Below the pieces are notes generated by a model that saw nothing but the letters and a program-made list of their open reading frames with translations, ran no database searches and was not told where the DNA came from. Positions 1-52,734 of a DNA stretch of 64,000 nucleotides are shown in pieces. Positions within the stretch are counted from its first letter, which is position 1. Each line of letters starts with the position of its first letter. Both the position numbers and the translations under genes were made by a program. The stretch lies in assembly GCA_047967505.1 (NCBI GenBank), contig CM106538.1; one strand, given 5' to 3'. This DNA is from Dipteris shenzhenensis (taxonomy: Eukaryota).

Positions 1-270
1 ACATGCATTTTGGCAGGGGATATTACAAATCATTGGACTCCTTTTTCTTTTGTACGGCAAGGTTGTACCCTTGGTGAGTTATTTTATGCCATCGCCACTC
101 ATCCCATCCTATAATATACGGATCATTTCATAGATACAGGTGCTTTGCATGGTCTAGAGATACATGGCAGCAAACCTTTGATTGCACATGCATATGAGGA
201 TGGTTCTTTTTTCTTACCACCGAACACTGAAAGAGATCTTTCTTACCTCATGCGTGCCTTACCTTTACGG
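1..270 (+). mobile_element. Degraded LINE reverse-transcriptase fragment (probably resumes at ~870-1050)
   Basis: Translates to VRQGCTLGELFYAI (RQGCPLSP-like) and AHAYEDGSFFL (YADD-like), with frameshifts. Confidence 0.55.
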
Positions 271-315
271 TAGGTAACCTAGAGAGAAGTTTTCTCTTTT
301 GGAGCCCTTATGAAG

Positions 316-869
316 CCACATTAGGAAAGAAGGGAACTCATTTTGGGGCCCTCTAAGAAATTCACTATTTACCTATTTTTGTTGCACTCAAAATATGGGA
401 AATGCCATAAAATGTTAATCTAGTACGCAGGCATCACATTAAATGCATATATAAGATCCTTGATTTTCTGCGCAAAATTTGGTGATTCTGACATTGCCAA
501 CACGTCCAATGCCAACTGGCCAAATCGTGTTTTTGTGCAAATTCCCCAATCCTGACATTTTTGCCCTATTTTGGGCCTCCGGGCATTGATTTTTTGTGTC
601 TCTAAGGTCGATTTGGGGGTTTTGGCCCACTCTAGGCACGCTGGCGATGTCAAAATCATAAAATTATGTGCATAAAATCATCTTTTGAAGATCAAGTATG
701 TCTCACATTATAAAATAAAAAGATTTTGAATATGACTTATTTCATATTTTTACATGGTTTTTTGTATTTTTCCAACATTACGTTGGCCCTCTTTTGATTA
801 GTCAAGAGCCTATTTTTTCTAAACCCTAAAAGGCCCCAAAATGAGCTTCCTTTTTTCCTAAGGCTTGGC
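316..869. mobile_element. MITE-like non-autonomous element with ~35 bp imperfect terminal inverted repeats
   Basis: ttaggaaagaagggaactcattttggggcc (321-350) is the near reverse complement of ggccccaaaatgagcttccttttttcctaa (832-861). A second internal inverted repeat pairs ~462-505 with ~636-680. No recognisable ORF. Confidence 0.55.
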
Positions 870-3206
870 ACAATTATAGGCATTGATCATCATGAAGATC
901 TTATGGCATGAATCCTATGGATTGATTTAAGCTAATTAAACTACATGTTCCAAATTTGTGGTCCTAGCTTTTGGATTTTGATATTCCCATGCTTTTTGGG
1001 TGGAATAGTGTGTTTTCCTACATGACATACCTTATGATGTAGATCAACATTTACAAGATGCAGATGAAACCGTTTGAGAATGGAAACTATAGCATCATGA
1101 TGGACGATGGCTGCACCATTGTCTCCAGATCATGAACTTGGTTGATTGTATTAGGGAAAGAAGGATTGAGAAGGAGGTAATCCAGAGGACCTTCTTGTGA
1201 TCGTTTTGCTTCTTTCTTTCTTGACAGATTGCGACAATTCTGAAGAGTACCTGGTTTGATATTTCAACCCAGAATTTTGTAGAAATCGCACAAGGAAGTA
1301 AGAATTTTGGAGAGCTAGTTCCATCCATTTTACCAAATATCCTTTTGCACCAACTGAGAGATCAGACGTCCTCATCAACTTCTTTGGTCCCCATCCTAGA
1401 CTTGGGGTTCTTCTGAAAAATTCACCACCTGCTCCATTTCCATTTAGTCACTCTATATTTGATGACAACAATCAAAACAAAAGTGGTGAGGAAAGCAATG
1501 ATATTATGCACAACAAAGCTAGAATGTGCAATACGAATATGATTATTGACATTCAGGTAATATGTCAATCTCTTATCCATCCACGAGACTTAATTGCAAT
1601 GCTAATATTCTAAATAATCTAAATCTTGATGCCTAAGGAAGGGCCCATTCCCTCAGATTATAATTCTTTGGGTAAGGAAGTGCATCCCCTCCACATCCAC
1701 ACATTGTGTGGTTATAATAATAATATCATATATAATTATTATAAAATTAGTTTTAACTTCTTTCCTTGTCCTATATATTTTAACCACAATCTAAATTCTT
1801 ACAACATTTCTCTCTTTTGATGCATGTTTTCGATGCGAGGAAAATTTGATATCAACAGCAAAGATAGCCAAGATGGATGCAAGATCGAAGGATGACAATT
1901 CATGTGGTTGTAATTCATGTCACAATAGTATAAAGGTTGCCATTAAGGATGAATCATGATCTCTTGTGAGCTTAGACTCATTCATGTATTTCTTGGACAT
2001 CAAAACTCAATAATAAAGCACCATCCATGACATTTGCAAGGAGGATTGGGTCCTAGTGGATCTTGTGTCATGTCTCATATCCATCTTTTTACTTATTCTT
2101 TTGTTTTTTCCTTTGAAAAATTTTTATTAAATGGTAGGATTCAAGTTAGAAATTATGTGCTCCATGGCAAAAATAGTTCTCTCAAAAAGTATAGAGTGAG
2201 TAATGAATGAATGAATGACTACATGCCAAGGATTGTGAAATATAGGGAGTAATTCAATGAATGAAGAAATGCCAAGAACAAACAATGGATGTGATCTTGG
2301 CCATCATGGCCCTCTCCTCGTCTGATTTGTGACAAGTTTAATTTTCATGCTCCCTTAAGCATTATAAGAATCTCACCACTCCTATTTCCTTTGGTCCAAA
2401 GGCAACCTACCATGTCGATGATGTGCTTGATGCAGATGGCATGGGGACATCATTATAGGCCTGTATGGTATTTCCTATCACAGATGCTTTATGATTTTCA
2501 GACGGTACCTCATCTTGAGATTTGTGACCGTCTCCAAGACTGGGTTCTTCAATTGGATTATCAGTTTGTCATGTGCTACTCTGTAGCTAGTATCATAGTT
2601 GCATCTTTGTATGCAAGCTTGCTACCTCCCCCTTGGGTTTCTCTTTGTGCCAATAGCATCTCGTCTATGACACGCTCCTCTCAGTGGTGGTGGGACCAAA
2701 GGTTGTAGTATATTTGGGCTTCTAAACTTTTGCTTTGGTGAAGACTCTTCTTGTGGCAAGTTTTACTTGGAGTTTTTCCATTTGGATTGATTTTGGCTCA
2801 TTGTCCTGTGCCCCTGCCACGTGTCGACAATGTCTATCCTCATGGCAGTCTATGTCACATCTCTTTCAAAATCTTATGATTTCTTACTCATGCTATGGCA
2901 AACGCTTCATGCTTATTTAGTAGTTCTTGCTTTGACAAAGTGATTCTGGCTATTTGGTTTCATCTAGTAAGGTAGGGATATGATCTACTTTTTTATTGGG
3001 TTTGCTATTAGGCACTATGGACTCTATTGAAAGAGAGTAACCATCGAGTCTTTGGTGATACCTCTCGGGCTAAATATCTAATCTTCTGGGCATCCTTAAG
3101 GCAATCGTTATATATTTGTCTACATACGCAGGATCTAGATTATCCTGCCTTATTGTCATACTTCTTATACTTGTAACTATTTGTCTCTTTTCTTCGAACT
3201 TTTCTA

Positions 3207-5000
3207 TGAAATATAACAACAAATGGATTTCACTAGAAAAAAAGTGTGCGCGTGTGTGTGTGAGTGTGTGTGGAGAAAATATAAAGATGAAGAGGAGAAG
3301 AGTGGAGATGAGGAACGAGAGCACAACTAGAGCACACACCACAAATGACAATATATTAGTTGAGGTTTAGGATTTCTATATCTTGTGCACTTTTAGCATT
3401 CTTTGTGTTAGTCCTATTTACAATATCAATGCAGGATGTTGAAACGAATCCTCAACATCTCTCTCAAGATTAACATCATAAGTAGGCCTTCTCTCAAAAT
3501 TATGATTAGGAGGAATACATAAGCCATTGAACATGACATTTTCATCACATCCCCATAATGGGAATGTCCCTCCTTTGAGTCAAACCAAGACCTTGTTGGT
3601 GTTTCTTGAAAAGATCTTTCCCAATTGGTTCGGTAAAGATGTCTGCAATATCTCTTTGCTATCAGAATATTACAATGTGATTTCACCATTTAACACTCTA
3701 AGCTTTGACATCAATGTGCTTTGTCTTCGAGTGATATACTGGAGTTTTGGCTAATGCTTGAGCCGATCGATTGTTACATTATATTGCTATTGGCTTTGCG
3801 TCATCAAAGTAATCTAACTTTAGCAATAGCCTTTTGAGCCACATAACTCAAAGCTGTCTTGGTTGCATTTCAGTGAGACTTTTTTGTATTTGCCCATGAA
3901 CTATGCTGGTGAACTTACCACATAAAAATGTTTGGCCTTGTGATAGCGAGATATATAAGACTTTGATGAGTTGCTAATAATACATTTCATTAACTTTAAG
4001 TTTTTTTGTATCATTGTTGGTAAGTTCCAAATTCCTCTCCATGAGAGTGGTTGCAATCTTACAATCTCTCGTATGAAACATCTCTAGGAGACTATCCATA
4101 TATTTCTATTGGCTCATGAAAGTATTGTCTGAGTCTCTCCCAAACTCAATACCAAGACAATAATTCATGTATACAAGATCTTTCATAAGCAGCAAAATAA
4201 TTGTCAATTCTATTGTATGAAGTTCTTGGAGCTTGCTTTAAGCATAGAGACTGCTGTCCTTGAGATGGCAAACTTGATTCCCTTTTCTTTTCTTAACATA
4301 CCTTGATGATTGTTGCATGTTGAATTACTCATTTAAGTAGCCATTAAGAAAAGTATTTTTAATATCTCATTCCACTAGCTAAGTGTGGTTGTAGATATCA
4401 AAAATATTATGGAGTCCATCTTTGCTGGTGGTGCATATGTCTCATTATAATCGTGCCCATACTGATGTGCAAAACCTTTTGCAATCTTGCAATGGATTCT
4501 ACTTGTCTTTGTAAACACGCTTGTTTACAATTGTCTTCTTTCTTGGTGGTAAGTCACATAAATTCCTAGTTTGTTTTGGTACAATGCATCCATTTCTTCA
4601 TTCATAGAAGTTTTTCATTCTAGCTTGTCAAGTGCATCCTCAAAGTACACTGGCTCTTTGATAGCCCCATGATGACCTGATGGTCATCATAAGAGCGTAA
4701 TTGGTGCTATCAGCTTGAATAGCTTTGCCTTTCTAAGCATATGTCAAATTGGGTGATGTTCTTCATTAAGTTGTACACCATCTAAGTTGTTGCTCTTTGG
4801 GGAATCTTTGGCAATGCTTGCTCTTCTTCATCAACCTTCTTTGTATGTTCTTGAGTGGTCATTGTGATTATCTTGTGCATTTGAGGACCTCCATTCCTTC
4901 TTCATCAAATGCTCCATCTTTGGAGATTATTATCTTTTGGTTGATGGGATCATACAAATTGTATTCTTTCCTCTCATCACTATAGCCAACCAAATCATAA
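3207..5000 (-). mobile_element. Degraded Ty1/copia RT-RNaseH 3' part with probable 3' LTR (~3207-3549)
   Basis: Minus-strand motifs LCDLPPRKKTIVNKRVYKDK, KNTFLNG, AKTPVYHSKTKHIDV and DIADIFTEPIG, with many stops. A TG..CA-bounded segment follows a purine tract. Confidence 0.75.
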
Positions 5001-7100: not shown

Positions 7101-8924
7101 TTGTGTGATTTGTAGAGCTAAGAGAAGACTCAAGCTAATAAATGTAATGGAGCTAGAACAAATACATATGGAGTCAATCAATTCCATTACTTGTGTGAGA
7201 GTCATTTGAGTTTAACAGAATGGAAAAAGTACAATCAATTGCCTAATTATTTTAAAATTAAATTATAAAAATGCATTCTTTGTTGCATTATGATAAGGAA
7301 GCAATTCATTTACATTTTTTGGACCACTCATTAATAAGGAAATACAAAGACCATCATTTTTGCATTTCTACACTCAAAATCCACATTATTTTTATTTCTT
7401 TGTCTGAATTATGTAATATTACATTGGGAAAATCTATTTATAACCTTTAAATCTGATTACTCAGAGGCATGATGATGTCTTTACTAGTCTTGGAAAGGAC
7501 GAAAATAGCCCGTTACACTCTTTGCTACAATACGAAGATGTGGATAATTATTGTAAAAATATCATTTGATTGAAGTGTACTTTTTTTAGAAAAATCAAGT
7601 GAAAAGGTTAAATTTTTGATGAATTTCAATCAAACCAAGACTAAGATCGAGAAAATTCAAGTCAGGACAGTGGTTTCAATATGGCTAATAGTTTGAATAC
7701 TAGGATCTAAAGAGATTCAAGTCAGGTTCATAGTTTGAATACTACAAGCCCAAACAAACTGAGCTTTGCATTATCTAACTACCATCCTATAATATTCAAG
7801 TTGGAAATCACTATAGTTAATGTTGTTCTGTTTAAGCACTAATGATAAGAAACAACCATTGACTCTTAGTGTGAGGACAAAGATCTTGCAATAAGGATAT
7901 GCCTTCTGTGCTATCATGAGATGTCCAAATGTCTTGATTTTGTTCAATTACTATAAGATGCAACAGAAAAAGGAAGTGTTGCTATTGACTTGAATGATTA
8001 TGCATTGACACTCTCCCCAATTCATACTTAAACATTCTCTTCTTCTACACTTCGTCCATGAGACTTTGTGCTTCACTACCATGGTAAATCCCCAAATAAA
8101 TTTTTCATTCAAATATTTTCCTCTTGAATTTTTTCCACACATGGTTGAGGAGTCAATGGGTGATTGAAGAACATAAATCGAGATGTCCTAATACAATATG
8201 ATGTAAATGAATCTTTGATATTGGAGCTCACAAGACTTTTCCTCGTGAGTGGGAAGGAAGTGCATTGTTGTGGTGCCTTCCATCTAATGATCGACACTTT
8301 TTTTTGCATGCATGTTCAAGATCTAGAATAATTGAGTTTCTTTGGTTATCTTTGTTGATGGCAACCATTCGACGTCACAGATGCTAGCAAAATGGTGCAG
8401 GTGGTAAGCTAAGTTGCATTAATTTGAGCATTTTTTTTATTCGAAAAAAATGCCCAAATATGCACTTTTTGCGATTTAAAATGTTTCAAACGTTTTTTGA
8501 TATTTTATTCGTACGAATAGGCTATTCGTACAAATAAACAGCTATTCGTACGAATAAAGTTATTCGTACGAATAGCTCAGTTTATTCATATGAATATACA
8601 TAGTATAAACTTACAGTCACTGCCATTTTTTGTATTAGTACGAATACATCCACCTGTCTTCCTTGCCACCTCAGCCACTTGCTTGCCAGCCCTGCCACCT
8701 CCTGCTTGCCTACCTGCTACCTCATGCTTGCTTCCATACCTACTAGCCCTCATCATAGGTACCTTACTGCACCCTTGCTTGTGTTGCAGTCTTTCGTTAG
8801 TAATTAATGTTTCTTTTATTTTGTTTTGTTTAGGACTGGCACTCATCTCTCTTAGGAGATTTGTGTGTTGCAATCTTTTTAAATTGTTTAATATTTATTT
8901 TGTATTGTATTTAAGTGTGTAAAT

Positions 8925-9500
8925 GGGCTGGCACTCATTTCTCTTGCGAGAGTTGTGTGTTGCAGTATATTTTTGTCATGTCTTGCAATTTTAACTATAA
9001 TATAAATAATTGTTTTTTACCTGAGGCTGGCACTCCTCTCTCTTAAGAGAGTTGTAGTCTCAGTTTGTATAAAAATGTTTATTTGTAGGAACTCTCTTAA
9101 GAGAGTTGTGTGTTGCCATCCAAGCTTAGTGATGTTTTCATAGATGCTTATTCTAGCACTCATCTCTCCCTTGAGAGTTGTGTGTTACAATCTAAGTTTA
9201 GAGATGTTTTCAAGCACTTAGTCTGGCACTCAACTGTCCCTTGATAGTTGTGTGTTGTAGTCTAAGTTAGATATCATGCGACATGCTCTTAGACACTTAA
9301 TCTAGCACTCGATTGTCCCTTGATAGTTGTGTGTTATAGTCTAAATTAGATAGCATGTGATGTGCTCTTAGAAACTTATTCTAGCACTCAATTGTCCCTT
9401 GATAGTTGTGTGTTGCAGTCTAAGTTCGATATCATGCAATGTGCTCTTAAACACTTAGTCTAGCACTCAACTGTCTCTTGACAGTTGTGTGTTGTAATTG
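8925..9500. repeat. ~78 bp tandem repeat in the hAT left arm
   Basis: Repeated ctagcactcaactgtcccttgatagttgtgtgttgcagtctaag units, clearest at 9150-9500. Confidence 0.85.
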
Positions 9501-9751
9501 AAGCCTAGTGTTAGATGGTGAAGTCCATGATTAGGTTATACCTAGGTCATTTTTTGTGCAGGTTACACGCTTATTTTTTATGTTTTGATTTTCTGTAGTC
9601 TGTTACATGATGTGAGCTTGAGTTGAGAGGTTATATCTAGGTAATTTCTTAGACTGCTTGTGTTGTTAATTGTTATGGCTTAATAAGTTTCTTATTGCAC
9701 CTGGCACTAAATTCTTTTTTGAATTCTATGTTGCAGCTTACTGCATATGAG

Positions 9752-10924
9752 ATGGCTCACGCAAGTGAGAAGAGGAAGTGTCAGCCAGCAACCTGATCTC
9801 ACTAAGTTTCAAAGGAAGGTGCTGAAAAACGAGAATGTACACTTCTTAATGAATGTCGATCAGGACATCATTGAGATAGCTTTCCAAAATGGTGAAAGCG
9901 GTGTATAGAATTTGGTGAGGACAATGGCAGAGCATGGAGGAGAACCTTGCGTGACCGATTTCTAGATGTTTTCATTGTAGATTCTATAGACCAGTATTTG
10001 TACCACTTAGTGATGGAGGGTCGACGATGCCTCGGTCAAATAGATCGAGACATAAACTCATGTGACACAAAGAGGGAGGATCCTGCTATAAATGCTAGGG
10101 TCACGTACATCAAGAATGTATGGTGAGGTTACAAAGGCAAAGGAGCTACCTCGACCTCCCTTCCATCAATGCACCCATGCCCCCAAGCACAGCCGCAACC
10201 ACAAGCACCAATGCACCCATGCCCCCAATCAAATGCCGCATTTCATCCACCGTAACCACAAGCACCAATGCACCCACATCCCCAGTCACATGCTACATTC
10301 CACCCAACATAGCTACAAGCACCACTACAGCCATGCCACATGCATCTTTTGCTTCTCCATTTGTGCCTCCTACCGCACGCACAAACCAATTTCCATCTCC
10401 TGCATACTCGCTTACACCACAAATGCACAATCTATCTGCACAAGCACGTACATTCCCATCTCCTTCATTCTCGCCTGCACAAGCACCACGCACATCACAT
10501 GGCTTGCATGATCGTGTAGCAATTCCAAGACCCATGCGGCCCATACTGCTTTAGCGAACGAGATATCTGATTCATGCCTAGTGTAGCTGTGGGCACAGGC
10601 ATGAAAGGAACAGTCAACATGTGCAATATTCTTGTCGCTCCCTTTGATCTACACAAGATTTATGCATGTAAGGTGCTGAGGGTTTTTGTGCCAACTAATG
10701 CGTTGAAGGCCAAAGCATTGGAAGAAGCCACGTGCTTGGGCGATGCCGTACATCTGGGCATCATCAGAGCAATGGGTCTAGTCCATGACGATAACCCAAT
10801 GATACTATTTCCGTTCTGAAATGGAAATCATTTGGAAAGATGGCTAACCTACCTCGAACATGACGAAAAGCGACCATCTCTAGTGTTTCATAGAGATGAT
10901 GCAAAAATGCCTGTTAGACATTAG
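9752..10924 (+). pseudogene. hAT cargo gene: Cys/His (PHD-like) zinc finger, Pro/Thr-rich linker, protein-kinase N-lobe; disrupted and 3'-truncated
   Basis: CYKC*GHVHQEC is in frame with ORF 10120-10554. After a frameshift: GTGMKGTV (Gly loop), YACKVL (beta3 Lys), ALEEATCL (alphaC Glu), HLGIIRAMG, then PMILFPF*NGNHLERWL (hinge; TGA likely from TGG). Confidence 0.65.
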
Positions 10925-11249
10925 ATTTCACCATTTGACATATGTATATCTACCTCTCTTGTGTCCACTAGATTACACCCTTGAGACTTGAAAATATAAA
11001 CTTCAATTGCGCATATTCGATTATTCTTTTCAACTTTCCAATGTTTCCTTGAAAGTATTTGCAAGTCACAAGGTTGGCTCTAACTTACCTATTATGTATA
11101 CCCAAAATCATCCATAATCTCAATAATTACAACACAACATCACTTGTAGCCCACAAGTTTCTAGCTTTCAAGTACAAAAGGAGACGAGATGGATATGAGT
11201 GTATACGCTCTTCCATCGCTTGACATATTCTCCCATCCATCCCCTCACA

Positions 11250-12865
11250 TACAACATTATATCCGATATAATTAGAGCTTCATCCACCGCTTCTATCACC
11301 TATCATATTCTTCTATCACTCTATATTGCATTCAACACAAGTACAATATCATATATCTCTTTGACTTCACTGTTGTCACTGAGTAGCTCAAGCTCGTCTT
11401 CCTCTTCTCTGAATGCACCCTCAGCAAATAACTAACTCTGTAGTCAATCATTGTCCAACAATTCTCATTATAGTGGCTTTGCTTGCTGCCCTAGCCATCG
11501 CAATATTGAATCCTTTCAATAATCGTAGATTTCAAAAGCAAAATACCAAATCTACATCTCTTGATGGCTTTAAGCAATTGCGTCTCTTAGAATGAATAAA
11601 ATCATATGCACTCCAATTTCACTCATATCACTCAATAAAGCAACAACAGAGAGCACACGAGTTGCAACATGTTGCAACTCCAATGTCTCTCCACCATATT
11701 CCTTCCACCAAGTAGGTGCAATAGCCATCTTAATAGCATCAAGATTCTAAGGATCTCCAAAAGAGCCTTTGTAATTCGTATACCTCACCCGTTGTTAGTG
11801 CGCCAGTTTTCCTTGATCTCCCGAAAGTAAGTTTTTACAAACCTCTCGAAAGTTACTTATGACTTCAGAATTCTGTGATTGAGCATGCATTTGATATTGT
11901 GGATGTACTACAAATGCAGCTCCATGCAAAGGGGTGTGCATTTGCTTCCATCTCTTATTGGCCAAATATACCACTTTTTGCTTCTCCCTAGGTGCAAAGC
12001 ACACAAATTCTTTAACTTGTATTTCTTCTGACATCTTCCAATACACTTTACCCATAACAAAGGCATCAGCGTCAACCATCCTCAATACTATTACAAATGG
12101 CTCTACACCTTTTATTCTTTCGACATTTTTTCAGAATAGAGATTATTATACAAGATGCACACATTTAGAGCCTGGTATTGCATACTGCATCTTTTTCTCA
12201 AGCTAATTCGCCCATCGTCTATCAGCAATAGTCTCGACTAAAGCTAGATGCACTTCCAACAATCTAGTAAGAATTAGAAAAGAAGTGGCAAATCTAGTTT
12301 GACAAAATTGCCTAAGTTGCTTCATAGAGTGCTCTATGAATACTACATGCAAGTATTGATGACTCTTTATAAAACTCACTACGGTGTTAGCATCTTGCAG
12401 TACTAGTTGCACAAATGGCAATTGTCAAATATCCTTTAACAATAAGTTGAGAGTATGAGCACCACATGGCACCCATGTCAAAGTGGGATACTTTGCCATG
12501 ACCATCTCACCCACGGTCTTGTAATTCGATGCATTATCTGTGTTACTAATGCAGTAACATTCTCACTACCACCAACTTTATGAATCACTCTTTCATATAT
12601 TTTTACAATATATGTTGAAGTCAACCGTCTCATCAACCTCAGCGCTCACATCTTGTTGATTTGAACAATTTCTTATTAAGGTCGGATTAACCACTTTCTT
12701 CACTTTCTCTAAATACGATTTACATAACGGAAGAACATCAGACGGAGTGCATGTGCAAGCTCCAACGTTACTGCCTATTCTGAGAAAATGTTGCTTGATG
12801 CAAGTAGAACCGCCTGTGAACTTGTGTCCACAATATTTACACTGCAAGAAAGAACCTGAGGCATG
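11250..12865 (-). pseudogene. hAT transposase pseudogene (BED zinc finger, DUF659-like core, dimerisation domain)
   Basis: QCKYCGHKFTGGSTCIKQHFL; DNASNYKTVGEMVMAKYPTLTWVPCVAHTLNLLLKDI; TRFATSFLILTRL; KRWKQMHTPLHGAAFVVHP; WWKEYGGETLELQHVATRVL; NWSAYDFIHSKRRNCL. The segment carrying the first catalytic Asp appears deleted near 12600. Confidence 0.9.
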
Positions 12866-13430
12866 TACTTTTTGTATGGCAAAAAAACTAATTTGAGTAT
12901 ACAATAGAAACATACTACAATACACATTTTATAAAAAACAACACATATCCTTTGAAAAACACGTTCAAGCATGCAATATATTAATTGTCATTCAATCACA
13001 CTCTATTAAAAGAATATAAAATATTCATTTAAAAGAAATTGTAAGAATAAGTAATAAAAATTAAGACATTTATTCATTTCTATTGAAAGAATATACTAAA
13101 TTGAAAATTATTCATTCACATTCTATTGAAAAAATATTATATATTCATTTAAAAGAAATTGAAAGAATTGAGTAATAAAAAGAGATATGGATTCCTTTTT
13201 TTTTAAAGAATACACTCAAATTGAAAATCATTCATTCACATTCTATTGAAAGAATATTAAATATTCATTTAAAAGAAAGTGTAAGAATGAGACAACTCTT
13301 CTAATAACTTTTAAAACTTTCAATTCGTACACTTCAAAGTCCTTTGTATTGTTTCACATTCTATTGAAAAAATATTAAATATTCATTCAAAGAAAGTGTG
13401 AGAATACAAACACAAAATAAAATCATATTT

Positions 13431-14295
13431 CTCACAAGAGATCTAAGGAATTCAACGAGGAGACCCTAGAACTCCCACATACAAAAATTCTCACAAGAGA
13501 TCTAAGGAACTCAACAAGGAGATTCTAGAACTCCCACAAACAAATTTCATAATTTCATAGACACGAAAACAAGCCCATTTCTCACAAGAGATCTAAGGAA
13601 TCAATAAGGAGATCCTAGAACTCCCACATATAAAAATCCTCACAAGAGATCTAAGGAACTCAACAAGGAGATCCTAGAACTCCCACAAACAAATTTCATA
13701 GTTTCATAGACACAAAAACAAGCCGATTTCTCACAAGAGATCTAAGGAATTCAACAAGGAGATCCTAGAACTCCCATGTACAAAAATCCTTACAAGAGAT
13801 CTAAGGAACTCAACAAGGAGATCCTAGAACTCCCACAAACAAATTTCATAATTTCATGACACAAAAATGAGCCCATTTTCCACAAGAGATCTAAGGAACT
13901 CACCAAGGAGATCCTAGAACTCCCACATACAAAAATCTATCCACATGAGATCTAAGAAACTCAACAAGGAGATCCTAGAACTCCCACAAACAAATTTCAT
14001 AAACACAAAAACAAGCACATTTCTCACAAGAGATCTAAGGAACTCAACAAGGAGATCATCAAACTCCCACAAATAAATTTATCTCATAAGAAATCTAAGG
14101 AACTCAACAAGGAGATCCTGGAACTCCCACAAATAAATTTTAGACACATAAATATCTAAAATATTTTTATCACAAGAGATCGAAGGAACTCAATAAAGAG
14201 AACCTAGAACTCCCACAAACAAAAGAACAAAGACCAAAACCAAAAACCTCACAAGAGATCTCAGGAACTCAAAATGAGATCCTAAAGCTCCCTAA
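13431..14295. repeat. Tandem array of ~12 copies of a ~49 bp core with alternating short/long linkers
   Basis: ctcacaagagatctaaggaactcaacaaggagatcctagaactcccaca recurs from 13431 to ~14290, with a ~150 bp higher-order dimer. Confidence 0.95.
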
Positions 14296-15799
14296 CAAAA
14301 AATCCATCTTATTTTGGACCTTCTAGATTGCTTTCACAACCTTGAGAACCTTTCTTCTTCTTTTCCTTATTTGATCTCTTATGCTCATATGGGGAACCAA
14401 GCGTGAGATAAGAGACACTGGCAAACAGTGAGCTTATATGCAAAAACACAATAACATATTCATCCTAATACAGGTTTATTCATACAAATACTTTACTCAT
14501 ACAAATACTTTATTCGTACGAACACTTATTCGTACGAATATGTGGGGATGATGTGGCAATTTATCTAAAAAATCGGTTTTTCTTCCATTCGGAATCATTC
14601 AAGCAATTTTCCTGATTTTTTTGAATCACGAATTCAAAATTTTCTACTTAGGCGGTAAGCGGATAGAAGACAAATGAGAGCACCTACTTAGATGAATTTA
14701 GGCAAGAGCTCATTGGGTTCATTACCCACAAGGTGCTCAAGCACTATTGCCTTGCTTACATGTAGACCAAAGCCATTTAGGGGGATTTTGTAGTTGATGT
14801 GAGGAGGTGGATCATTGAAGTGCATATGGCCATGATCATGTTGAAATGTTGCATCAAACTCCTTGCAATGTAAAGGAATCAAGGGGATCATATCTAGTTG
14901 CCATTTATAAGCACATTTCAATGATTGATACCATCTGATACACAAAACTTATAGTAATGATTGATTCCATCCAATACACGAAACTTATAATAATGATAGC
15001 CAGACCCATTGAGAAATTGGGTTGCAATACTTTGGTGGGGAATTGGGTGAGGTGTACCCCCAAAACACCAAAGGATCATCCCATAAGTGGTATCTCAGGT
15101 GAACTCCTTATCTACGAGTGGATTTACAAGAAGAAATTAGAAAATCAATAAGAAGGCATTGCTCATGATGCCAAGCAAAAGGAAAAAGAGGTAGTGAGTG
15201 ATGTTAACGAGTAGGTTAAATAACTATTCAAGCATAATGATTAACCTCATCTTGACTTCCTAGAGTGGATGTCCCTATCTGAGAAGAAGCAAGAGTAGAC
15301 TCCCCCATTTTTTCATATTGAAGATACTGTGGAGAGATTGGATAATTGCCTATGTGTGGGTGAGATGCATGTAGATTCCATTGTAGATAAATAGCCACCT
15401 ACGTGGAACTTGATGGGATATCCATCTACATGCAAGTGAGATATGTGTAGATGCCATTGCAAATGCATATAACCATGCCAAACTATGTGCAATTGCATAT
15501 AACTATGCCAAACTATGTGTTTTAAGGAGAGATATTGGGAACATGGAGTACTAGTTCCATTGCGAATGTGTACATGTGTGCCAAACCATGTGTTTGAGGG
15601 AGGAATGCTAGAAATAGAGAGTATTGGATATAGATCTAGAGAGAGGAAGAAGGATTGAAAGAGTTTGGGTGATAGACTAAGAATATAGTGGCTAGGATGG
15701 AAGATGGGAGATCTTCCAATTGCCTCATTTTGTATCTTGGTGAGGCAATTCATCTTTCATACTTGTTTAGTATAATGAAATCTCTTATGAAATGCTTCC

Positions 15800-21401: not shown

Positions 21402-24200
21402 TATTGGGGAGTGGGAGAGAAGATGGACATCATGGAGAAGAGTGTGGGAACCAAAGGGAAAATTTTTCCATTGAGTTGAGAAGAAGTCCTCTCTTTTATA
21501 GAATGGGACAGAGGGTGGCCTTAATCAATGGCACCTCTCCTACATCAAAGGAGGTAACTCCACAATCATAGGTACCACCCCATGTGGGGGGCCTTGTATT
21601 ACATCATCACTTATGTCATGGCCTATGGCATTGAGTGCGCCTCTTCTACTCACACACACACAACCATATGACTGCTAGTGGATGCACGCATGCACCTAGC
21701 AAGCCCTTGGTCACACATATCCCAACATACCCCCCCTTAAGGGTTTGCCTCATGCTATGTCAAGGATACATCTAGTCACATAGTTTCACGTGCCATCTCA
21801 TGGTGGTCAAGGATAAATCTATGGCTAGGATCTCATGCTAGCAAGGGTGCCCAAGGTTCAAGGTTTAACAAAATGGGATAGACCCCCCAAATGGTTATCT
21901 CCCTTGCATGTACAATGATTAATCTTAGGCCTTTGTGTGGATCTAGTTTCTCATGTCTGCAAGAGGTACCATGGGGGCAAACACATATCACATGGCCTAC
22001 ATCATATGGTGACTGGAGGTGATTTACAAAAGAAAAAACACAAAACACATAACATTCTTTTTGGAGTACTATTCTAGGTAGAGAACCTCAAAATTGACAA
22101 AGTGATGATAAAAAAGCTTAAAAGACAGTCTTTATCTTCTACCACAAAGTTTGATTCTTCATTTACTGATGGAGTCTCTCTTCAACTAGATTTGCCATGT
22201 TTTTCTTCTTCCCATTGCAAAACTTCTCTGAATGATTGTTCTTGCCACAATAAGTGGAAGGATTGATCTTGTAGTAATCTTTTTCAAGATGATTGGTCTT
22301 TCCATAATTTTTGCATGCCTTGTACTTTCTCTTTGATGTAAACTTTACTGCAAGTGCTTGTGTGTGCTCCTCACCCATTCTTGAAGTCTTCTTTCTCTCT
22401 TCCTCTTGTAGAGCATTGATGATGCCCTCTAGTGTGGGTTTGGGAAGATTCTTCAAGAAGGTAGTCACAACATAATCATAGTCTTGAGGCATACTCTTTA
22501 AGAGTGCAGCCATAGCATCATCTTCAGTAATTGGAGAGTTGATTGAGGCCAATTGTGTAATAAGACTCCTCAAAGTATTTACTATTAACATGGGCTGCAA
22601 CATTGTCTCCATCCATCTTAAGTTCAAAGAACTTAATTTTTAAATTCAACATAGAAGTATGAGAGCTAGCACCAAATAACACATCTAACTTATGCCAGGC
22701 CTCAAAAGGGGATTCCAAATCTGAAATATGATGCACATAATCATCTCCCTAATCTAATGCAATAATTGCATAAGCTTTCTCCAGCCTTTTAGCATCTGCA
22801 GGTGTAGTGAAGAAGAGTCACTTGTATTCCATTTGCTTTTGGTTGTGGTGGATTCACCTTCTTGAGATGATTGATTCCTTGGCTTGACCAAGTCCCACAA
22901 ATTCTCTTTTATAAGCAAAAATTTGATTTTCATTTGGCAAGTGTGAAAACCTTGGCCATTGAACTTGTCTATCTTAAAGGTGGCCATGAGAGTGTCTTAT
23001 ATTTATGTTTAGGCAGTGTCTGCTCTCTTACAAATGGCTTATGAGTCTCAACCATACAAGTTCATATTGCAAGCCATAAATTAAAAAAATCCTAAACTTT
23101 TTGCATCAAAATAATAATATGGTTTATGTGACTTTTCCTTCACAAGTTTTGTTACCTTCCTATTGACATATCTAGGTGCTTGTTTCTTCTTCTTTGCTTT
23201 CACATATGAAGCATTGGAAGATGAACAAGAGCTAGGCATTATTAACTAAGAATATTATGTCAATAAGTCATCTCCAAGCTTGCGTCAAGCATCCAACAAC
23301 CAAAAATGCCCAAAATTATAGTGGAAAAATAGAGTAACTTGGAGGCCTTAATTCAAACACTATGAAGCATATCTAATAGGGATTTTAATGCACATTTGAA
23401 GATATTATACCAAAGATTGTCCACCTAGGAGGATTGTCAAAAATTCGCCCATAATTGCTCATGAGCACAACCCCTTTTTTGACTGGCCTTTTGCTTGTTT
23501 CTCCACACTCCAGCAAGCAATTTGAGCTCAAATTTCATCAGGAGCAAGCTCTTAGCATTTCCTAACTTGTGCTTGAAGGGCAAGTCGAAATTTGTTCTGT
23601 AGAGGCGCATCACCTGGTGGTTTCCTCATCCAGTACGGGCTATACACACAAAATTTTAGAGAATTCTTGGTGTCAGAGGTGTGCCTTGAGGAGAGGATTC
23701 TTCAATTCAAATGGCTTTGGAAATGGTTACATGAGACAGAGAATAGAACTATGCAAGTTCTGGAAAAATAGAGGGCAGAAATGAAGAAGAAAGTGGAGGG
23801 TGGAGAAGAAGATGATGAGATGGCATTTTGAAGCTAGAATGGACTAGAGGCTCAAGGAGGCTCTGATACCACATGTTGTGGAGCGGGAGAGAAGATGGAC
23901 ATCATGGAGAAGAGTGTGGGAACCAAAGGGCAAAATGTTCCATTGAGTTGAGAGGAAGTCCTCTCTTTTATAGAATGGGAGAGAGGGTGGTCTAAATCAA
24001 TGGCACCTCTCCTACATCAAAGGAGGTAATTCCACAATCATAGGTACCACCCCATGCGGGGGGGCCTTGTATTACATCATCACTTATGTCATGGCCTATG
24101 GCACTAAGTGTGCCTCTTCTACACACACACACAACCATAGGACTGTGCTAGTGGATGCACACATGCACCTAGTAAGCCCTTGATCACACATATCCCAACA
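21402..24200 (-). mobile_element. Gag-only non-autonomous LTR retrotransposon (TR-GAG-like, copia-type gag)
   Basis: LTRs at 21402-21727 and 23874-24200. 5 bp TSD ACTAC (21397-21401; 24201-24205). tRNA-iMet PBS (ctctgatacca, 23861-23871). PPT at ~21728-21740. No PR/IN/RT seen. Confidence 0.92.
22163..22987 (-). pseudogene. Copia-type Gag, frameshifted
   Basis: MATFKIDKFNGQGFHTCQMKIKFLLIKENLWDLV; EAWHKLDVLFG; DAMAALLKSMPQDYDYVVTT; two zinc-knuckle remnants (CKNYGKTNH, YCGKNNHSEKFC). Confidence 0.88.
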
Positions 24201-30426: not shown

Positions 30427-31677
30427 TCAAAGAGAGGGAACCCCCACAAGACTACCATTCAGGATCCAATGACACACAGGAGTCTGTCCTGGCGTCACCC
30501 CCAATGCCTTCAACACAAGGTGATCCTTTCGCCAAGCACTTGTATCCAAGTGGCAAGCAACTATGGCATGTACCACATCGTTCTGCTTCCCGGGCGAGGG
30601 AGCAAGCATCACCTCCACATCGTATACTTTAGTTGGGAATAGATAGTGGCAAAAATGCAACTCGAATGGAAATATCAGCTTATGGCAAACGACGTTTGCA
30701 TCGCTTCCGTTGTTGAGGTCCTTGATGGAGAGGATTCTCGCCATGGAACGCGGTGCAAGATCCGAGGTGAGAAGCATGAAGGAGGGAGTGCGAAGCTTGA
30801 CGGCAATGAACTGCAGCATGGATTCGAGGGAGGCTGGGCAGAAGGTTTGAGAAGAAGGACTAGAGGAATGAAGAGCGCAGAGCGTGAGGGAGGAGCGCAT
30901 GGCTTCAGCCATGGTTGAGTTCGCAGAAATGCCAAAATCGAGGAGCAGGCGGGAGAGTTGAGATGGCGAGAGGGGGAGAAGCACCTCCGCGATGGGGTTA
31001 GGGAGGAAGGAACGAGATGGGATAGGATTTTGAAGGTCTGGGAGGGATATGGTGGCTCCTGTAGAGAGTTGATGTGAGAGGAAAAAAAGATTAACATCGA
31101 CGTTAGGCGCGTTTTCGTCAACACAACAAATGATGCAACAACAATGACAGTCCATGATCTGTCCGCCTGTCGGGAGGTTGGACTGACAGAGAAGTCTACC
31201 CTTGCTGCAAAATGTTTGCGAGGAATTGGTGAGAGAGCCTGAATTGGCTAATTGATCGACCCATTTTTGTGTCTCCTGGCTATCCAATGGAGACTCTGAA
31301 GCTACAAGCCAAAGCGGGATTTGTTCCTTGTATTTATACTTGAGCGAGCACACGCTTTCCTGCATCAACGCATGAATAAGCAAAATTAAGCGAACACACC
31401 TCAAAAAATTTGAGCACAATGATATTGGACGAGTAGTAGCATTAGTCAGCAACAACAACGGTATCATTAACCAACAACAGCGCTGTATAATTACCAGCAA
31501 CGACAACAGTATCATTAACCAGCAACAGCGCTGTGTAATTAATCAGCAACGACAATAGTATCATTAACCAGCAACAGCGCCGTATAATTACCAGCAAAGT
31601 CATGGGGACAGACTTACCAGAAACAACAAGCACCCCCCAAGACACAGCGCAAGAAAGAGACTCCGTGGATTTGCCAT
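30427..31677 (-). CDS. Secreted BURP-domain protein, polygalacturonase-1-beta-like; exons 31677-31618 and 31359-30427; ~330 aa
   Basis: Exon 1 encodes a signal-peptide-like MANPRSLFLALCLGGCLLFL, followed by a phase-0 GTAAGT..TGCAG intron. The BURP domain has its FF start (LFFLSHQL), SRSFLP, CPASLESM and four CH motifs (VCHKLIFPFELHFCH..ACHLDTSAW..VCHWI). The ORF is intact. Confidence 0.93.
31445..31597. repeat. ~49 bp tandem repeat (3 copies) in the BURP intron
   Basis: cagcaacgacaacagtatcattaaccagcaacagcgctgtataatta is repeated. Confidence 0.9.
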
Positions 31678-35578: not shown

Positions 35579-38500
35579 TGTTGAGATATCGAGCTATACT
35601 CGTGATATGCCAAGGTGACCGTTGTGCATTTATGTCGTCGACTTGATAGCTGCAGATGCGGTTGGTACACCGCCCATGAATAATAGCTGGATGACCGCTA
35701 TATCCTTATGTACTCTAGTTAGTGGCTCAATTAGTATGCCACCTAGGTTAGCTGAGTTTGGTTTAAAACCCCAGTCTGTCATGCTAGAACAAAGCACATT
35801 GAGGTGCATTATCACTATGTGCAGAAGAAGGTTCTAGTAGGTTTTATTGATCTAGTTTATGTCAGCATAGACGATCAGGTAGCTAACATATTCACAAAGG
35901 CATTGGGTGCAGAGAAGCTACGCAAGTTCAGAGACCTGCTTGGTGTGCAGGAATTGGGATTGAGCTCGAGGGGGAGTGTTGAGATATCAAGCTCCACTCA
36001 TGATATGCTGGGGTGACTGTTGTGCATTTATGTCACCGACTTGTTAGCTACAGATGCAGTTGGTACACTGCCCATGAATAATAGCTGGATGACAGCTATC
36101 TTTATATACTCTAGTTAGTGGCTCAGTTAGTATGCCACCTAGGTTAGCTGAGTTTGGTTTGAGAACCACATATAGGGTTCACCTATTCCTTTTGTACTTA
36201 GAGAGTTCTTTTGGCTTTCACAATGAAGAAGAGGAAAGGTGTTTTCAGCCTCCACCTTTGTGTGTATTCCCCCATTGTGTATGTGAGAAAGCCGTAAGTG
36301 AGACTCCTTCCTTCTCTCCCACTCTCTTCACATGGTATCACAGCTCAGTTCATGGTAAGAAGCTCAAGAAACCAAACCAAGTTCGCAGTGTCTTGGTAAG
36401 AGGATCAATGTTGCTTTCCTTTTTCGAGTTTGGGAGCAAATCTCTGCAGGTAGCATAGCCAGAAAGTGCAAGAGTGCACTGTCTCATATTAGGACACCCT
36501 TCACAGTGTGGCAAGAGGGCAGTATATGTTGTGGGAGAGGGCAAAGCCTAGGTGACATTATTTTTTTGATTCAAGGCCATTTTGGGGCTCGTTTTTGTGG
36601 TGGAAGTTTTTCGCAGGCACTCAGAAAAGCGCATTGTTTTTGCTGTGCGACCACTATTCTGCAAGTCAGTGAAAAGTTACCATAGAAATTGCATCATATG
36701 GCTATGTGCAGAGATATTGGGAGTGACAGAATCATTCTTATTGCCTGTTGATGCAAAATCGTCACTAGGAAGTGACTTGTGGTCAAATACCACTTTCGTC
36801 AGTTTTGCAGATTTGCCCTTGTGAGATAGAACTTGTGTTTTTTGCAGTGACAGAATATTTTTGTAGTGTTCTATAATGGCATCTAATGCTCTTTCACAGA
36901 TAGTCACTGAAAAGATTGACAAGAACAACTTCCAAGCATGGAAGTTTAGAATGATAAATTTCCTTAAGGGAAAAGGCTATTGGGAGTTCATTATTAGAGC
37001 TGAACAAGAACCAGTTATTCCTAATGTTCCCAATCAATAGGAGTTGTAGGCATTTAAAGGATGGCATGAGAGAGCCAGAAAAGTTATGTACTGGCTGTTT
37101 ATCCGTATTTCAGATTCTATGATTGTGCATATTCAGGATGCAAGCACGCCGAAGGAGGCATGGGATACTTTGACAAAAATATATAGCACAAATACGCAAG
37201 CTAGGAAAATGCAGCTCAAGTAGGAGTTGCATAATGTGTAGAGAGAAAATATGAGCATCAATGACTACCATATGAAGGTGAAGAAGATTGCAGATGCACT
37301 TGCTTTCATTGGGTCGCCAGTGGAAGATGATGATTTAGTTTCTGTGACCTTGAATGGTCTAGGAAAGGATTATGCACAATTCCAGACATCCATTGCCGTC
37401 CGTGAGAATTTTCCTGATTTTGGGGAGTTCATTGCTCTTCTAATTTTTGAAGAGCAGAGAAATGGTGGTGCATCTTCTTCAGGAGGAACTTCAAAAGAAA
37501 CTGTCTTCTACTCAAATGCTGGAAGAGGTAGAAGTAGAGGTAGAGCAAGCCGATTTGGAGGCCATGGCAGAAATCAAAATATGCAGCAAATTCAAGAAAA
37601 CCAGTCCTATGGAGGAGGACATGGTAACTTTAGAGGCAGGGGGAGCCAAAGAGGTTGTGGTGGATGGCAGAGAGGCCAAAATGCAAACAACAATGTTGAA
37701 TGATACTACTGTGGTAAAATGGGTCATGTGGTTAAAGACTGAAATAAAAAGTAGAATGACATCATGACTGAAAAATTACAGCAAGGCAATTATGCATCCT
37801 CTAGTAGACAGGGTGATGACAGAAATAAGCATTTGTTTATGGTGCAGCACGTGACCAATTCTGTGACAAGTGTAAAAGAAAGCAATAATGTGTGGTATGT
37901 TGACTCAGGTGCGTCAAATTACATGACAGGTCATGCAAAATGGATGCAGGATGCAAGGAAAATGGAAAGACCAGGATTTGTGGAGACTGGTGATGATATT
38001 GCACATCCTATTGTGTAGATTGGTAAAATTCCTTTGTTTATGCAAGACGGGAAAAAGAAATACATGCCTGATGTATTTCATGTCCCGAATATCACCAAGA
38101 ACCTAGTTTCTGTTGGTCAAATGGTTGAGCAGGGCTTACGGGTCAGATTTAATCCTCATGGATGCTTTGTTGAGGATATGAAAAATAAAGGTCACTTGAT
38201 AGCAAAAGGGAAGAAGGGTAGGGTGTTTACGTTGGATGTGGCCATGCCTGAATTGAGTGCAGCAATGTTTGCACATGGGACCGGTGTAGTTGTAGATATT
38301 GATATCTGGCATAAACGCATTGGTCATGTTAATGTACAGCGACTTCAATTCATGCAGGCCCAAAATATTATTGCAAGATTGCCTCAGTTCAAGGTTGCAG
38401 AAATGCATAAGGTATGTGAAGCTTGTCAATTTGGAAAACAGGCAAGGAAACCATTTCCTAGACATGTTCAATAGAGTAAGAGGCTAACCCTTCTACTCGT

Positions 38501-40924
38501 AAGTTTACAGTCAGTAGAGATGTTGTTTTTTATGAGATGAGCAGCTGGTATAAACCAGTAAATGTGATTGATGATGTAGATGCACAAAATGGTAATGTTG
38601 CATAGAATTCACCGTAGCAATCACAAAATATTAGTGGACCTATAGTGTTCTCTAGCAATGGTTCACATACTTCACCATGGACAGGCAGATTGAGATCAAG
38701 AGAATCTCCTCAAAGCAATGCAGATAGTGGTATGCAAGTATCACGAAAAGGAAAAGAGAAAGTGGATCAGCCCATTGTTGATGTGAATGCAAGTCACTCT
38801 TATGTGGATGGTGAATCCAGTGGCTCAAAATAGAGCCTTGATGATGAGTTGGGTATTCCTTCTATTGTTACACCTGGAGTAAGGAAGACAAGGGATGTTT
38901 TGAGAGCACTTGGTAGTGAGCCTATTTTGTGTAGGTCTACCAAAGCTAGGTATCCTATGGATAGGTTGAAATATGATGGATTTACAGCCATTCACTATGC
39001 CTATATGGTCAAAGTGATACATGAACCAGAACCCACTTCTTTTGAGTAAGCCATGGGAAAAGAAAAATGGGAGAAAGCCATGGATGAAGAAATGGATGCC
39101 TTGGAAGCAAATGCTACATGGGAATTGGTGCCTTTACCTAAAGACAAGAATGCAATTAGCTGCAAAAGGGTTTATAAGGTGAAGCACAATGCAGATGGTT
39201 CTGTGAACAGATACAAGGCAAGATTAGTTGTCAAGGGGTATGCACATGCATATGGCATTGATTATGAAGAAACATTCAGTCCGGTTGCAAGGATGGCAAC
39301 CATAAGAGCAGTCATTGCTATGGCTGCATCAAAGGGATGGTCTTTACATCAGATGGATGTAAAGAATGCTTTCTTGCATGGTGATTTGCAAGAAGAGGTC
39401 TATATGGAGCAGCCACCAGGTTATGTTCATGCTGTTCATCCTGAGTTTGTTTGTAGGTTGAAGAAAGCCTTGTATGGCTTGAAGCAAGCACCCAGCATGG
39501 TCTGACAAGATAGGATAGTATCTTGTCACTATTGGCTTTCAGATTTCCAAGGCCTATTTCTCACTTTATATGAGAAAAATAGAGAAAGGCATTATGCTGC
39601 TTGTCATTTATGTTGATGATTTGATCATCACAGGTGATAGTGATGAAGATATCCTTCATGTGAAAATGCTACTGAAGCAAAAGTTTGAGATGAAGGATTT
39701 GGGAGAGCTACGTACTTCTTGGGCATTGAGGTGATTAGATCCACAAGTGGGATATGGCTCTTGCAGAGGCAGTATGGATTGGACATGCTATCCAAATATG
39801 GGATGACAGGTTGTAAGCCTATTTCAATTCCTTTAGAGCAGAATGTGAAGTTGAGCGCAAATGCAGGTGAGCTTCTGGAAGACCCTACTATGTACAAACG
39901 CATAGTAGGAAGTTTGATTTATATGACTATTACCAGGCTAGATTTGAGCTATGCTATTGGTTTGGTAAGTCAGTTTATGTAGGCTCCAAGGAAACCGCAT
40001 TTGGATGCGGCTAGATGCATACTGAGGTATGTGAAGTCCACATTGTAGTATGGACTATTTTATGAGAGTGGGGTTTGTATACAGTTGCATGGATACACTG
40101 ATGATGATTGGGCTAGTAGTATTTCTTATAGATGATCTACCAGTGGATATGTATTCACTTTTGGGAGTGCTGCAGCCACTTGGAGTAGCAAGAAACAGCC
40201 TATAGTTGCCTTGTCGAGCACAGAGGCTGAGTACAGGGGTGCAACAATGGCTCTATGTGAGGCAGCTTGGTTGCATAAGCTACTTTATGATATGCATCAG
40301 TCTACAGATGGGCCAGTTGTCATTTATTGTGACAACATGAGTAGTATACACTTGGCAAATAACCTAGTCTATCATGCTAGAACAAAGCACATTGAGGTGC
40401 ATTATCACTATGTGCAAGAGAAGGTTCTAGTAGGTTTTATTGATCTAGTTTATGTCAGCACAGAGGATCAGGTAGCTGACATATTCACGAAGGCATTGGG
40501 TGTAGAGAAGCTACGCAAGTTTAGAGACCTGCTTGGTGTGTAGGAATTGGGATTGAGCTCGAGGGGGAGTGTTGAGATATCGAGCTCCACTCGTGATATG
40601 CTAGGGTGACTGTTGTGCATTTATGTCACCGACTTGTTAGCTGCGGATGCAGTTGGTACACTGCCCATGAATAATAGCTGGATGACAGCTATCTTTATGT
40701 ACTCTAGTTAGTGGCTCAGTTAGTATGCCACCTAGGTTAGCTGAGTTTGGTTTGAGAACCACATATAGGGTTCACCTATTCCTTTTGTACTTAGAGAGTT
40801 CTTTTGGCTTTCACAACTAAGAAGAGGAAAGGTGTTTTCAGCCTCCACCTTTGTGTGTATTCCCCCATTGCATATGTGAGAAAGCCGCAAGTGAGACTCC
40901 TTCCTTCTCTCCCACTCTCTCATA
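35579..40924 (+). mobile_element. Ty1/copia complex with three LTRs and one 5 bp TSD
   Basis: TSD GTTAT (35574-35578; 40925-40929). Partial LTR 35579-35770, RNaseH end + PPT 35772-35976, LTR 35977-36332, PBS tggtatcacagc 36333-36344, internal region, PPT 40561-40569, LTR 40570-40924. Confidence 0.95.
36876..40560 (+). pseudogene. Copia Gag-Pol polyprotein pseudogene (integrase core deleted)
   Basis: [99 protein letters not shown]. Many premature stops. Confidence 0.95.
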
Positions 40925-43699: not shown

Positions 43700-44585
43700 G
43701 TTCAGAGGAAACTAGCTTCCCACTTTTTAAGTGAATACCACAAAGCCATCGGTGACACACCCCACTACCCATGTTCTTGTTGTGGTTCACTTATGTTCAA
43801 ATGAAAATTGGTAAGAGGAGTGCAAGGCTTCCCTGACCATGTGATCAGAGGCATGGAGAATGACCACACTAACAATTCATCAGAAAGAAATTTTGCAATC
43901 TATGTGCAAAACAATTACAACAACACAAGCTGCCCATACTCTCTAAACAAAACATGCATCTATCATACAACATACCATACGCATGCAAATTGAATGAAAT
44001 TAAAGCAAGGCTAGTAGCAATAAGAATTTTGTTCACTCAACTTAGAGAGTTATCGTGTGATGGACAATATGGATTGTGTGACAGCATTATCAATGTCCTT
44101 GCTGATATTGATAGGGCACAAAGACTACCCAGGTTTCTTAGAGACGACTCGACAATAGCTGTGGCAATATGTCAAAAGCTTGAATACACACACAATTACA
44201 TGAGTGGGACAATACATCCAACATTAACTATTCATGCTTTAAAAGATTTATTAGAAAGACTATTGTACAAGGAAAACAATGTCAAATTAAATCCATTATG
44301 GATTGACCACATACTTAACTTGCAAGACTACATGGACCAATGTGAAGAAACCACAAATAGCAATGATTTCATTGACCTTGAAGATTAGGTTCACACAGAT
44401 ACACTCGTGCATGGTATATATACTATACAACAGGTTGTTGACTTTGAGGACAAAACTATCATGGTTGCACCTTCCGAGGGATTCTCTTGACTCAACACTT
44501 TGAAAGACAAATTCTGTGAAGAACTAGCATTTTCACCACTATTCTATGGATAAGCAAGGAACTACAATATACCTGCACAAACATG
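43700..44585 (+). mobile_element. Helitron2/Helentron-type RepHel N-terminal fragment (DUF6570-like), truncated
   Basis: CSCCGSLMF; ICAKQLQQHKLPILSKQN; LNEIKARLVAIRILFTQLRELSCDGQYGLCDSIINV..LPRFLRDDSTIAVAICQKLEYTHNY; MVAPSEG; DKFCEELAFSPLFYG. Confidence 0.8.
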
Positions 44586-45180: not shown

Positions 45181-45296
45181 AACCTTTAGTTGCACCCCCT
45201 ATACCTTCTCCCTCTCTCTCCCTCTATCGGAGCTTCTCTCTCCCTCCAAGCTACACTTTCTAGTCCACTATTGCTGTTGTGACCTCTGCACAAGCA

Positions 45297-46572: not shown

Positions 46573-46628
46573 CATTTTCCAATTAATAGTGGTGCAATTA
46601 ATTTTGATGTTTTGGATGGTTTTGTTTC

Positions 46629-52732: not shown

Positions 52733-52734
<2 letters not shown>

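Follow-up and report, generated by a model that had tools for sequence, protein, structure and literature searches.

The stretch of DNA considered here, called the window, comprises 64,000 nucleotides of contig CM106538.1 from Dipteris shenzhenensis (assembly GCA_047967505.1). It contains a 6243-bp hAT transposon (positions 8409-14651) that holds the remains of two genes facing each other, one for a hAT transposase and one for a divergent protein kinase. A reading made earlier from the sequence alone (the original prediction) had described the kinase as a resident accessory gene of the transposon, equipped with a zinc finger. From the evidence collected below, the element is probably a copy, now dead and shortened by internal deletion, of a hAT transposon lineage with two genes, in which the kinase is a long-standing second gene; the zinc finger was judged not to belong to that gene.

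The hAT element and its two convergent genes

The borders of the element were placed by aligning its left end with the reverse complement of its right end (CTAAGTtGcA and CTAAGTaGaA, respectively). The resulting terminal inverted repeats (TIRs), CTAAGTTGCA and CTAAGTAGAA, are identical over their first six positions and match at 8 of 10 overall, and they are flanked by an 8-bp target-site duplication (TSD) whose copies, GTGGTAAG and GCGGTAAG, agree at 7 of 8 positions. The palindromic motif TATTCGTACGAATA, with at most one mismatch, occurs seven times in the 64-kb window, always in one of the two subterminal regions of the element, and shuffled sequences are expected to contain none. Together with the transposase remnants, these features bear out the TSD-flanked hAT element of the original prediction. 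Long tandem arrays occupy the space between the 5' side of each gene and the element ends, with copy numbers, according to Tandem Repeats Finder (TRF), of 5.4 for the 149-bp unit, 2.5 for the 120-bp unit, 3.6 for the 79-bp unit and 2.4 for the 70-bp unit.

The transposase is encoded on the minus strand. Its DUF659 region scores 41.5 bits, above the Pfam cut-off of 34.7, and the matches to zf-BED (19.0 bits, cut-off 20.6) and Dimer_Tnp_hAT (PF05699; 15.3 bits, cut-off 21.4) both fall short. Several stops, together with one or more frameshifts, break the reading frame. The kinase frame lies on the plus strand, so that the two genes converge, as had been proposed.

Over its 390 codons the kinase frame contains 10 internal stops, compared with 18 and 20 in the other two frames and with 19.6 expected from composition. 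Ordered kinase subdomains I-V had been read in this frame, and a comparison with the Pkinase profile gives a weak match: the piece at 10571-10816, taken alone, has E=0.0061 and 16.4 bits, under the cut-off of 31.7. Relatives were sought with the fragment of 117 amino acids (aa) that results when the in-frame TGA is read through as X. As a phmmer query against 1.84e9 representative proteins, it yields six matches at E<=1e-3, the best of which, P0002, reaches E 3.3e-27 with 55% identity, the other five showing 31-42% identity. Four of the six lie above the Pkinase cut-off and five above that of PK_Tyr_Ser-Thr; P0002, an N-lobe piece of 131 aa, clears neither. A word-indexed protein search with the same fragment had found no match, a miss of sensitivity given the relatives later recovered by phmmer.

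The motifs of the window fragment (GTGMKGTV, YACK, EEAT, HLGIIRAMG and FPF[W]NGNHL) align column by column with GEGAFGxV, YAxK, HEAT, HRGII and YWNGG of the family, whose conserved columns read GxGxFGxV, YAxK, (H)EAT, HxGII and YWNGGxLxxW. The Gly-rich loop, the VAIK-type lysine and the helix-C glutamate of a kinase N-lobe are all present, and judged by this alignment the predicted subdomains I-V are real. The C-lobe, by contrast, is missing from this copy, as had been noted: neither tblastn with the relatives nor the hidden Markov model (HMM) of the family detects an HRD..N loop, DFG or APE in the window beyond about 10909-10921. Since both the kinase gene and the transposase are broken, nothing in the window element is functional, and on the state of its two reading frames this copy is dead. 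The features of the element, and those of the related locus discussed in the next section, are collected in Table 1.

Table 1. Coordinates of features in the hAT element of the window and in the related locus L001 (positions for L001 are those of its own contig).
Feature	Position	Strand	Basis or remark
Left TSD GTGGTAAG	8401-8408		7/8 identity with right copy
Left TIR CTAAGTTGCA	8409-8418	+	End alignment
Left subterminal cluster, TATTCGTACGAATA x5	8506-8646		Motif count
70-bp and 79-bp tandem arrays, upstream of kinase open reading frame (ORF)	9101-9496		TRF; sequence
Pseudogene of N-domain+kinase family	9752-10924	+	Single frame from ATG to TAG, truncated after kinase N-lobe
Remnant of family helical N-terminal domain (EGRRCLGQI ... 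GYKGKG)	10016-10201	+	N-domain HMM, kinase frame
CxxC..HxxC motif CYKC*GHVHQEC	10084-10119	+	Motif scan; internal TAG, off kinase frame; judged outside gene
57-bp tandem repeat, 2.5 copies, enlarging linker	10193-10337		TRF
Kinase N-lobe: G-loop, YACK lysine, EEAT glutamate, hinge FPF*NGNHL	10553-10909	+	Family HMM 56.5 bits, independent E value 1.1e-18
TGA stop	10817-10819	+	Column with W in all six aligned relatives (YWNGG motif)
hAT transposase pseudogene	11517-12928	-	BED 12596-12928, DUF659 12428-12562, dimerisation region 11573-11746
120-bp and 149-bp tandem arrays, upstream of transposase	12988-14224		TRF
Right subterminal TATTCGTACGAATA x2	14511-14540		Motif count
Right TIR, reverse complement CTAAGTAGAA	14642-14651	-	End alignment
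Right TSD GCGGTAAG	14652-14659		7/8 identity with left copy
L001 kinase	1-952	+	Pkinase 44.7 bits, cut-off 31.7; one frameshift
L001 223-aa ORF, intact	1303-1974	+	Between kinase and transposase
L001 hAT transposase	2213-3340	-	Dimer_Tnp_hAT 35.5 bits, cut-off 21.4

The kinase family and the related locus L001

A profile search of a collection of 5.8 billion proteins produced 6689 candidates, 21 of which qualify as family proteins at E<=1e-10. These 21 are all unnamed and are encoded on contigs of 2.8 kb or less. They fall into five multi-member subfamilies, with 69-93% identity inside each, plus singletons; this pattern resembles that of a dispersed repeat, although it could also have arisen from the presence of several source organisms. 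The full-length members P0005 (443 aa), P0008 (457 aa) and P0011 (463 aa) are 37-44% identical to one another and share the same architecture, made up of a helical N-domain of ~130 aa (with ILGQ and an invariant KGKxK), a short disordered basic linker, the kinase and a GLRPxDD tail. In P0008 and P0011, KGKxK is followed by KRxR-like runs, and the basic character of the linker hints at nuclear import. All three proteins retain the full catalytic set, that is, the K of YAxK, the E of HEAT, HNDLHGRN, DWG and APE. The search for HRD and DFG therefore succeeds in the intact relatives, where they take the form of HND and DWG, and fails in the window copy. The threshold of Pkinase/PK_Tyr_Ser-Thr (PF00069 / PF07714) is passed by P0003, P0004, P0005, P0007, P0008, P0011, P0013 and the kinase of L001. 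Going by these residues and scores, the family is very divergent, yet catalytically complete in its intact members.

Structural comparison points in the same direction. An AlphaFold2 model of P0008, built with the family alignment, has a predicted local distance difference test score (pLDDT) of 77.6, and among the matches listed by Foldseek against the PDB there are only protein kinases, at E about 1e-10, with HCK, MET and RET as the best ones. At the sequence level, 632 entries of the PDB match the family profile at E<=1e-3, and the best 60 of the 632 are all kinases; the top match is TrkB (E 1.6e-11), and ROR1, FGFR2 and PERK are also found. The kinase fold on which the original prediction depended is thus recovered in Pfam-positive relatives and in the P0008 model, and is seen for that relative rather than for the window fragment itself. 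The N-domain, modelled alone with a pLDDT of 87.8, has no Foldseek hit at E<=1e-3, no match in the PDB sequences better than E 0.028 and no match in the Atlas. Beyond the kinase models, the comparison of the family proteins with Pfam gives a single sub-threshold match, Bac_rhamnosid_N on P0011 (E 0.079), which was taken as chance. An MLKL-like reading, based on MLKL_N-bearing clusters among the kinase look-alikes of the Atlas, was dropped, as the N-domain model has no significant helical-bundle match.

A remnant of this N-domain is also detected in the window, upstream of the kinase and in frame with it; its distance from the ATG is the expected one. The remnant scores 16.7 bits on a stretch of 273 codons, a value reached by 0 of 1000 codon shuffles, whose maximum was 3.8. 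The N-domain and the kinase N-lobe of the window keep the order of the family in one frame, and the linker between them measures ~140 codons, as against ~40 in the relatives.

The pairing of kinase and transposase recurs at a second locus. A scan of metagenome contigs for related loci with a 5-sequence alignment gave 188 pattern matches, one of which was confirmed (L001). The same alignment gave 98 pattern matches in prokaryote genome contigs and 129 in viral contigs, and a scan of metagenome contigs with P0001 and P0002 gave 57; none of these was confirmed. L001 is a contig of 3341 bp from a metagenome collection, with three ORFs, and its kinase converges on its transposase in an arrangement equal to that of the window. 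The two transposases match by tblastx with E 1.4e-98 and 48-69% identity per segment, and the kinase N-lobe of the window is 28% identical (29/104) to that of L001, with E 7e-10. By these comparisons, two loci that have diverged deeply carry homologous versions of both genes, in the same relative order and orientation. The L001 kinase shares 83-92% identity with two family proteins, P0014 and P0017; since the breaks in P0014 and L001 do not coincide, these two are separate decaying copies. The intact ORF between the two genes of L001 has no Pfam match, nothing in the PDB better than E 0.29 and no counterpart in the window, and it is possibly a third gene of these elements. From the kinase N-lobe to the 3' end of the transposase, the window is ~1.2 kb shorter than L001, a shortfall that fits an internal deletion taking both the C-lobe and the intergenic ORF.

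Resident second gene, passenger or neighbour

An old and maintained second gene is favoured because the pairing is kept in L001, because the kinase family is private and because no ordinary host kinase resembles the fragment closely in the set of representative proteins searched. The resident accessory gene of the original prediction, as opposed to a recently captured host exon, is accordingly upheld by the L001 pairing, the private family and the catalytically intact relatives, within the compass of two loci. In its live form, the lineage would consist of elements that encode a transposase with BED, DUF659 and hAT-dimerisation regions, together with a second, convergent and apparently intronless gene of ~450 codons. 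The product of the latter would be composed of the orphan helical N-domain (~130 aa), the basic KGKxK linker and a divergent but catalytically complete protein kinase. The window copy would derive from such an element by the acquisition of 10 in-frame stops and by deletion of the C-lobe and of the stretch between the genes, its transposase having been broken as well.

In live elements, the kinase would presumably act in trans as an accessory factor. By analogy with VANC of VANDAL elements, it might phosphorylate a host silencing, chromatin or DNA-repair protein and so favour transposition, a suggestion that is the foremost candidate but less likely than not; that it might instead phosphorylate the element's own transposase to the same end seems rather unlikely, and the rest of the probability goes to other roles or to no benefit for the element. 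The chances appear about even that the proposal holds in its broadest form, namely, that a hAT lineage has long kept a divergent, competent kinase with an orphan N-domain (28% identity between the paired kinases) as a weapon against, or regulator of, host silencing, repair or the transposase, and that it constitutes the first kinase-encoding family of cut-and-paste elements.

Several observations weigh against a long-standing second gene. The linkage of kinase and transposase is found at two loci only, and the 3.3-kb contig L001 shows no element ends, so that the placement of its kinase inside a transposon is only presumed. The nearest relative of the window fragment, P0002, is itself just an N-lobe fragment below every Pfam threshold. 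Finally, the kinase diverges much faster (28% identity) than the transposase (roughly 55%), as would likewise be expected of a passenger under weak constraint. An ancestral hAT element might indeed have picked up a host kinase on a single occasion, the gene having hitch-hiked since then without contributing to transposition; capture of host coding sequence is known from plant DNA transposons, as described for Pack-TYPE elements (PMC8903248), and the small number of linked loci suits this explanation as well. However, captured fragments usually decay, whereas in this family complete ORFs of 443-463 aa have been preserved in subfamilies only 37-44% identical to each other, with every catalytic residue and a conserved private N-domain. 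Among the 1.84e9 representative proteins, moreover, no ordinary host kinase matches the fragment at E<=1e-3, all six matches carrying the same idiosyncratic motifs, and no parent of host type for the capture is detected there; the high-identity match to a host kinase that would have spoken for a one-off capture is lacking, and orientation and pairing are kept in L001. An old passenger is hence improbable. The chances are slighter still that the kinase comes from a host family or from a separate nested element and stands beside hAT sequence merely by coincidence or insertion. The lack of visible ends in L001 leaves room for this, as does the fact that the genomic context is established for a minority of the family members. 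Nevertheless, the window ORF lies inside the TSD-flanked ends, with no convincing second TIR or TSD around it, and the sole inverted pair that spans it (9681-9702 with 11714-11735, 77% complementary) would cut the transposase; a homologous pair of genes in the same convergent layout at two divergent loci is, in addition, very unlikely to occur by chance.

The remaining alternatives concern the nature of the gene itself. The original prediction had assembled a kinase with a PHD-like zinc finger, targeted to chromatin, with a Pro/Thr-rich linker and an intron of its own. The finger corresponds to CYKC*GHVHQEC, whose spacing can be written as CX2CX4HX2C or CX2CX2HX4C, with four candidate ligands in 12 residues. 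A PHD finger has eight zinc ligands in a C4HC3 arrangement that extends over some 50-80 residues, and the spacing of the zf-CCHC zinc knuckle is CX2CX4HX4C. The CxxC..HxxC pattern appears in just 0.55% of 2000 shuffles of the region, so that it is uncommon by chance, though the motif was picked after the fact; over the whole window it occurs twice on the plus strand and never on the minus strand. The frame that bears it is open from 10099 to 10554. Against these points, the motif contains an internal TAG and matches neither PHD nor zf-CCHC (PF00098) in Pfam at E<=10, and it is off frame with respect to the family segments on both sides, which lie in the kinase frame (the ILGQ-type EGRRCLGQI at 10016-10045, GYKGKG at 10127 and KGKG at 10133-10144). 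Of the relatives, four still have the N-terminal domain, and none of these shows a Cys/His finger at the matching position. The motif is probably coincidental, and without a PHD or other zinc finger there is no basis for a chromatin-targeted kinase; the anti-silencing role that had also been suggested is speculative. The Pro/Thr-rich linker does not hold either, as it had been read in the off frame of the finger and is in part the 57-bp tandem repeat; an open frame over this stretch says little, because this C/A-rich, repeat-derived sequence is free of stops in two of its three frames. As for the upstream intron-like region, the tgttgcag found before the ATG (about 9729-9736) resembles, on comparison by eye, a tgtgttgcag-like motif that recurs in the 70-79-bp units of the upstream tandem array, and the claim could not be sustained. 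In its full form, this model is hardly credible. Least probable of all, to the point of being negligible, is a chance open frame with no kinase in it: the Pkinase profile by itself remains under threshold, but this reading is already refuted by the P0002 match, the family HMM score and the alignment of all the subdomain motifs.

Outside the element, the window contains other recognisable features. An extended open frame at 30430-31542 on the minus strand encodes a BURP domain (E 1.2e-45); this family is specific to plants, which marks the window as land-plant DNA. Remnants of Ty1/copia elements lie at 37242-40543 on the plus strand and at 22166-22639 on the minus strand (RVT_2, E 1.3e-46, and copia-type gag, E 5.3e-11), and a reverse transcriptase similar to those of long interspersed nuclear elements (RVT_1, E 7.9e-16) is found at 61543-63471 on the minus strand, in a block with a GC content of 0.52-0.54 as against about 0.37 elsewhere. 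A strand asymmetry extends over 6 kb at 50001-56000, with a GC skew of 0.33-0.52 and an AT skew of 0.20-0.24. At 43873-47141, four ORFs of 140-186 aa follow each other on the plus strand; the three that were scanned match nothing in Pfam at E<=1e-3, and the group may stem from an unrecognised element or gene.

Comparison with known transposons and kinases

Elements of the hAT type are the textbook case of single-gene transposons, normally encoding a transposase alone. The window element resembles the Ac/Ds-type hATs of plants (Ac, Tam3 and Tag1) in its 8-bp TSD, its short TIRs and its subterminal repeat motifs, as well as in a transposase with a DUF659 region and putative counterparts of the BED finger and the C-terminal dimerisation domain. 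While the classical hATs encode one protein, the lineage represented by the window and L001 adds a convergent gene for an N-domain fused to a kinase. With respect to TK/TKL-like eukaryotic kinases, the intact members of the family share the bilobal fold and the Lys, Glu, HxD...N, DxG and APE elements, but they differ in having HND for HRD, DWG for DFG, a YWNGG hinge, the private helical N-domain and the GLRPxDD tail.

Accessory genes are found in several groups of DNA transposons, including the Myb-like ORF of PIF/Harbinger, TnpA of CACTA, the ULP1 protease of Mutator-like elements (MULEs) and CACTA, and the TET/JBP genes of KDZ elements. Such genes, among them those for VANC, the Harbinger Myb-like protein and CACTA TnpA, have revealed how mobile DNA manipulates its host. 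VANC is the anti-silencing protein carried by VANDAL21 MULEs (PMC5735166 and PMC10398659), and the likeness consists of a non-transposase gene that has been kept for long and that presumably acts in trans for the element; the difference resides in the accessory protein, here a protein kinase with an orphan N-domain. Pack-TYPE elements (PMC8903248) are similar in that they hold host-like coding sequence inside TIR ends, and the window copy is likewise a gene fragment. They are, however, non-autonomous and contain recent fragments of identifiable host genes, whereas the window element is of the autonomous type and has no detectable host parent, its kinase cargo being shared with the distant L001 and having full-length versions among the relatives.

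In the open full-text literature, no report was found of a kinase gene in a hAT element or in any other TIR transposon; a prior description may exist in Repbase, Dfam, journals that are not open or supplements, which lie outside that scope. The word 'kinase' does not occur in PMC9804982 or in 10.1101/2024.04.02.587720. Genome annotation will probably mistake copies such as the one in the window for pseudogenes of host kinases. If the proposal is correct, a conserved kinase partner would represent a novel type of transposon-encoded effector, and it would explain unnamed kinase-like predicted proteins that are dispersed over public assemblies.

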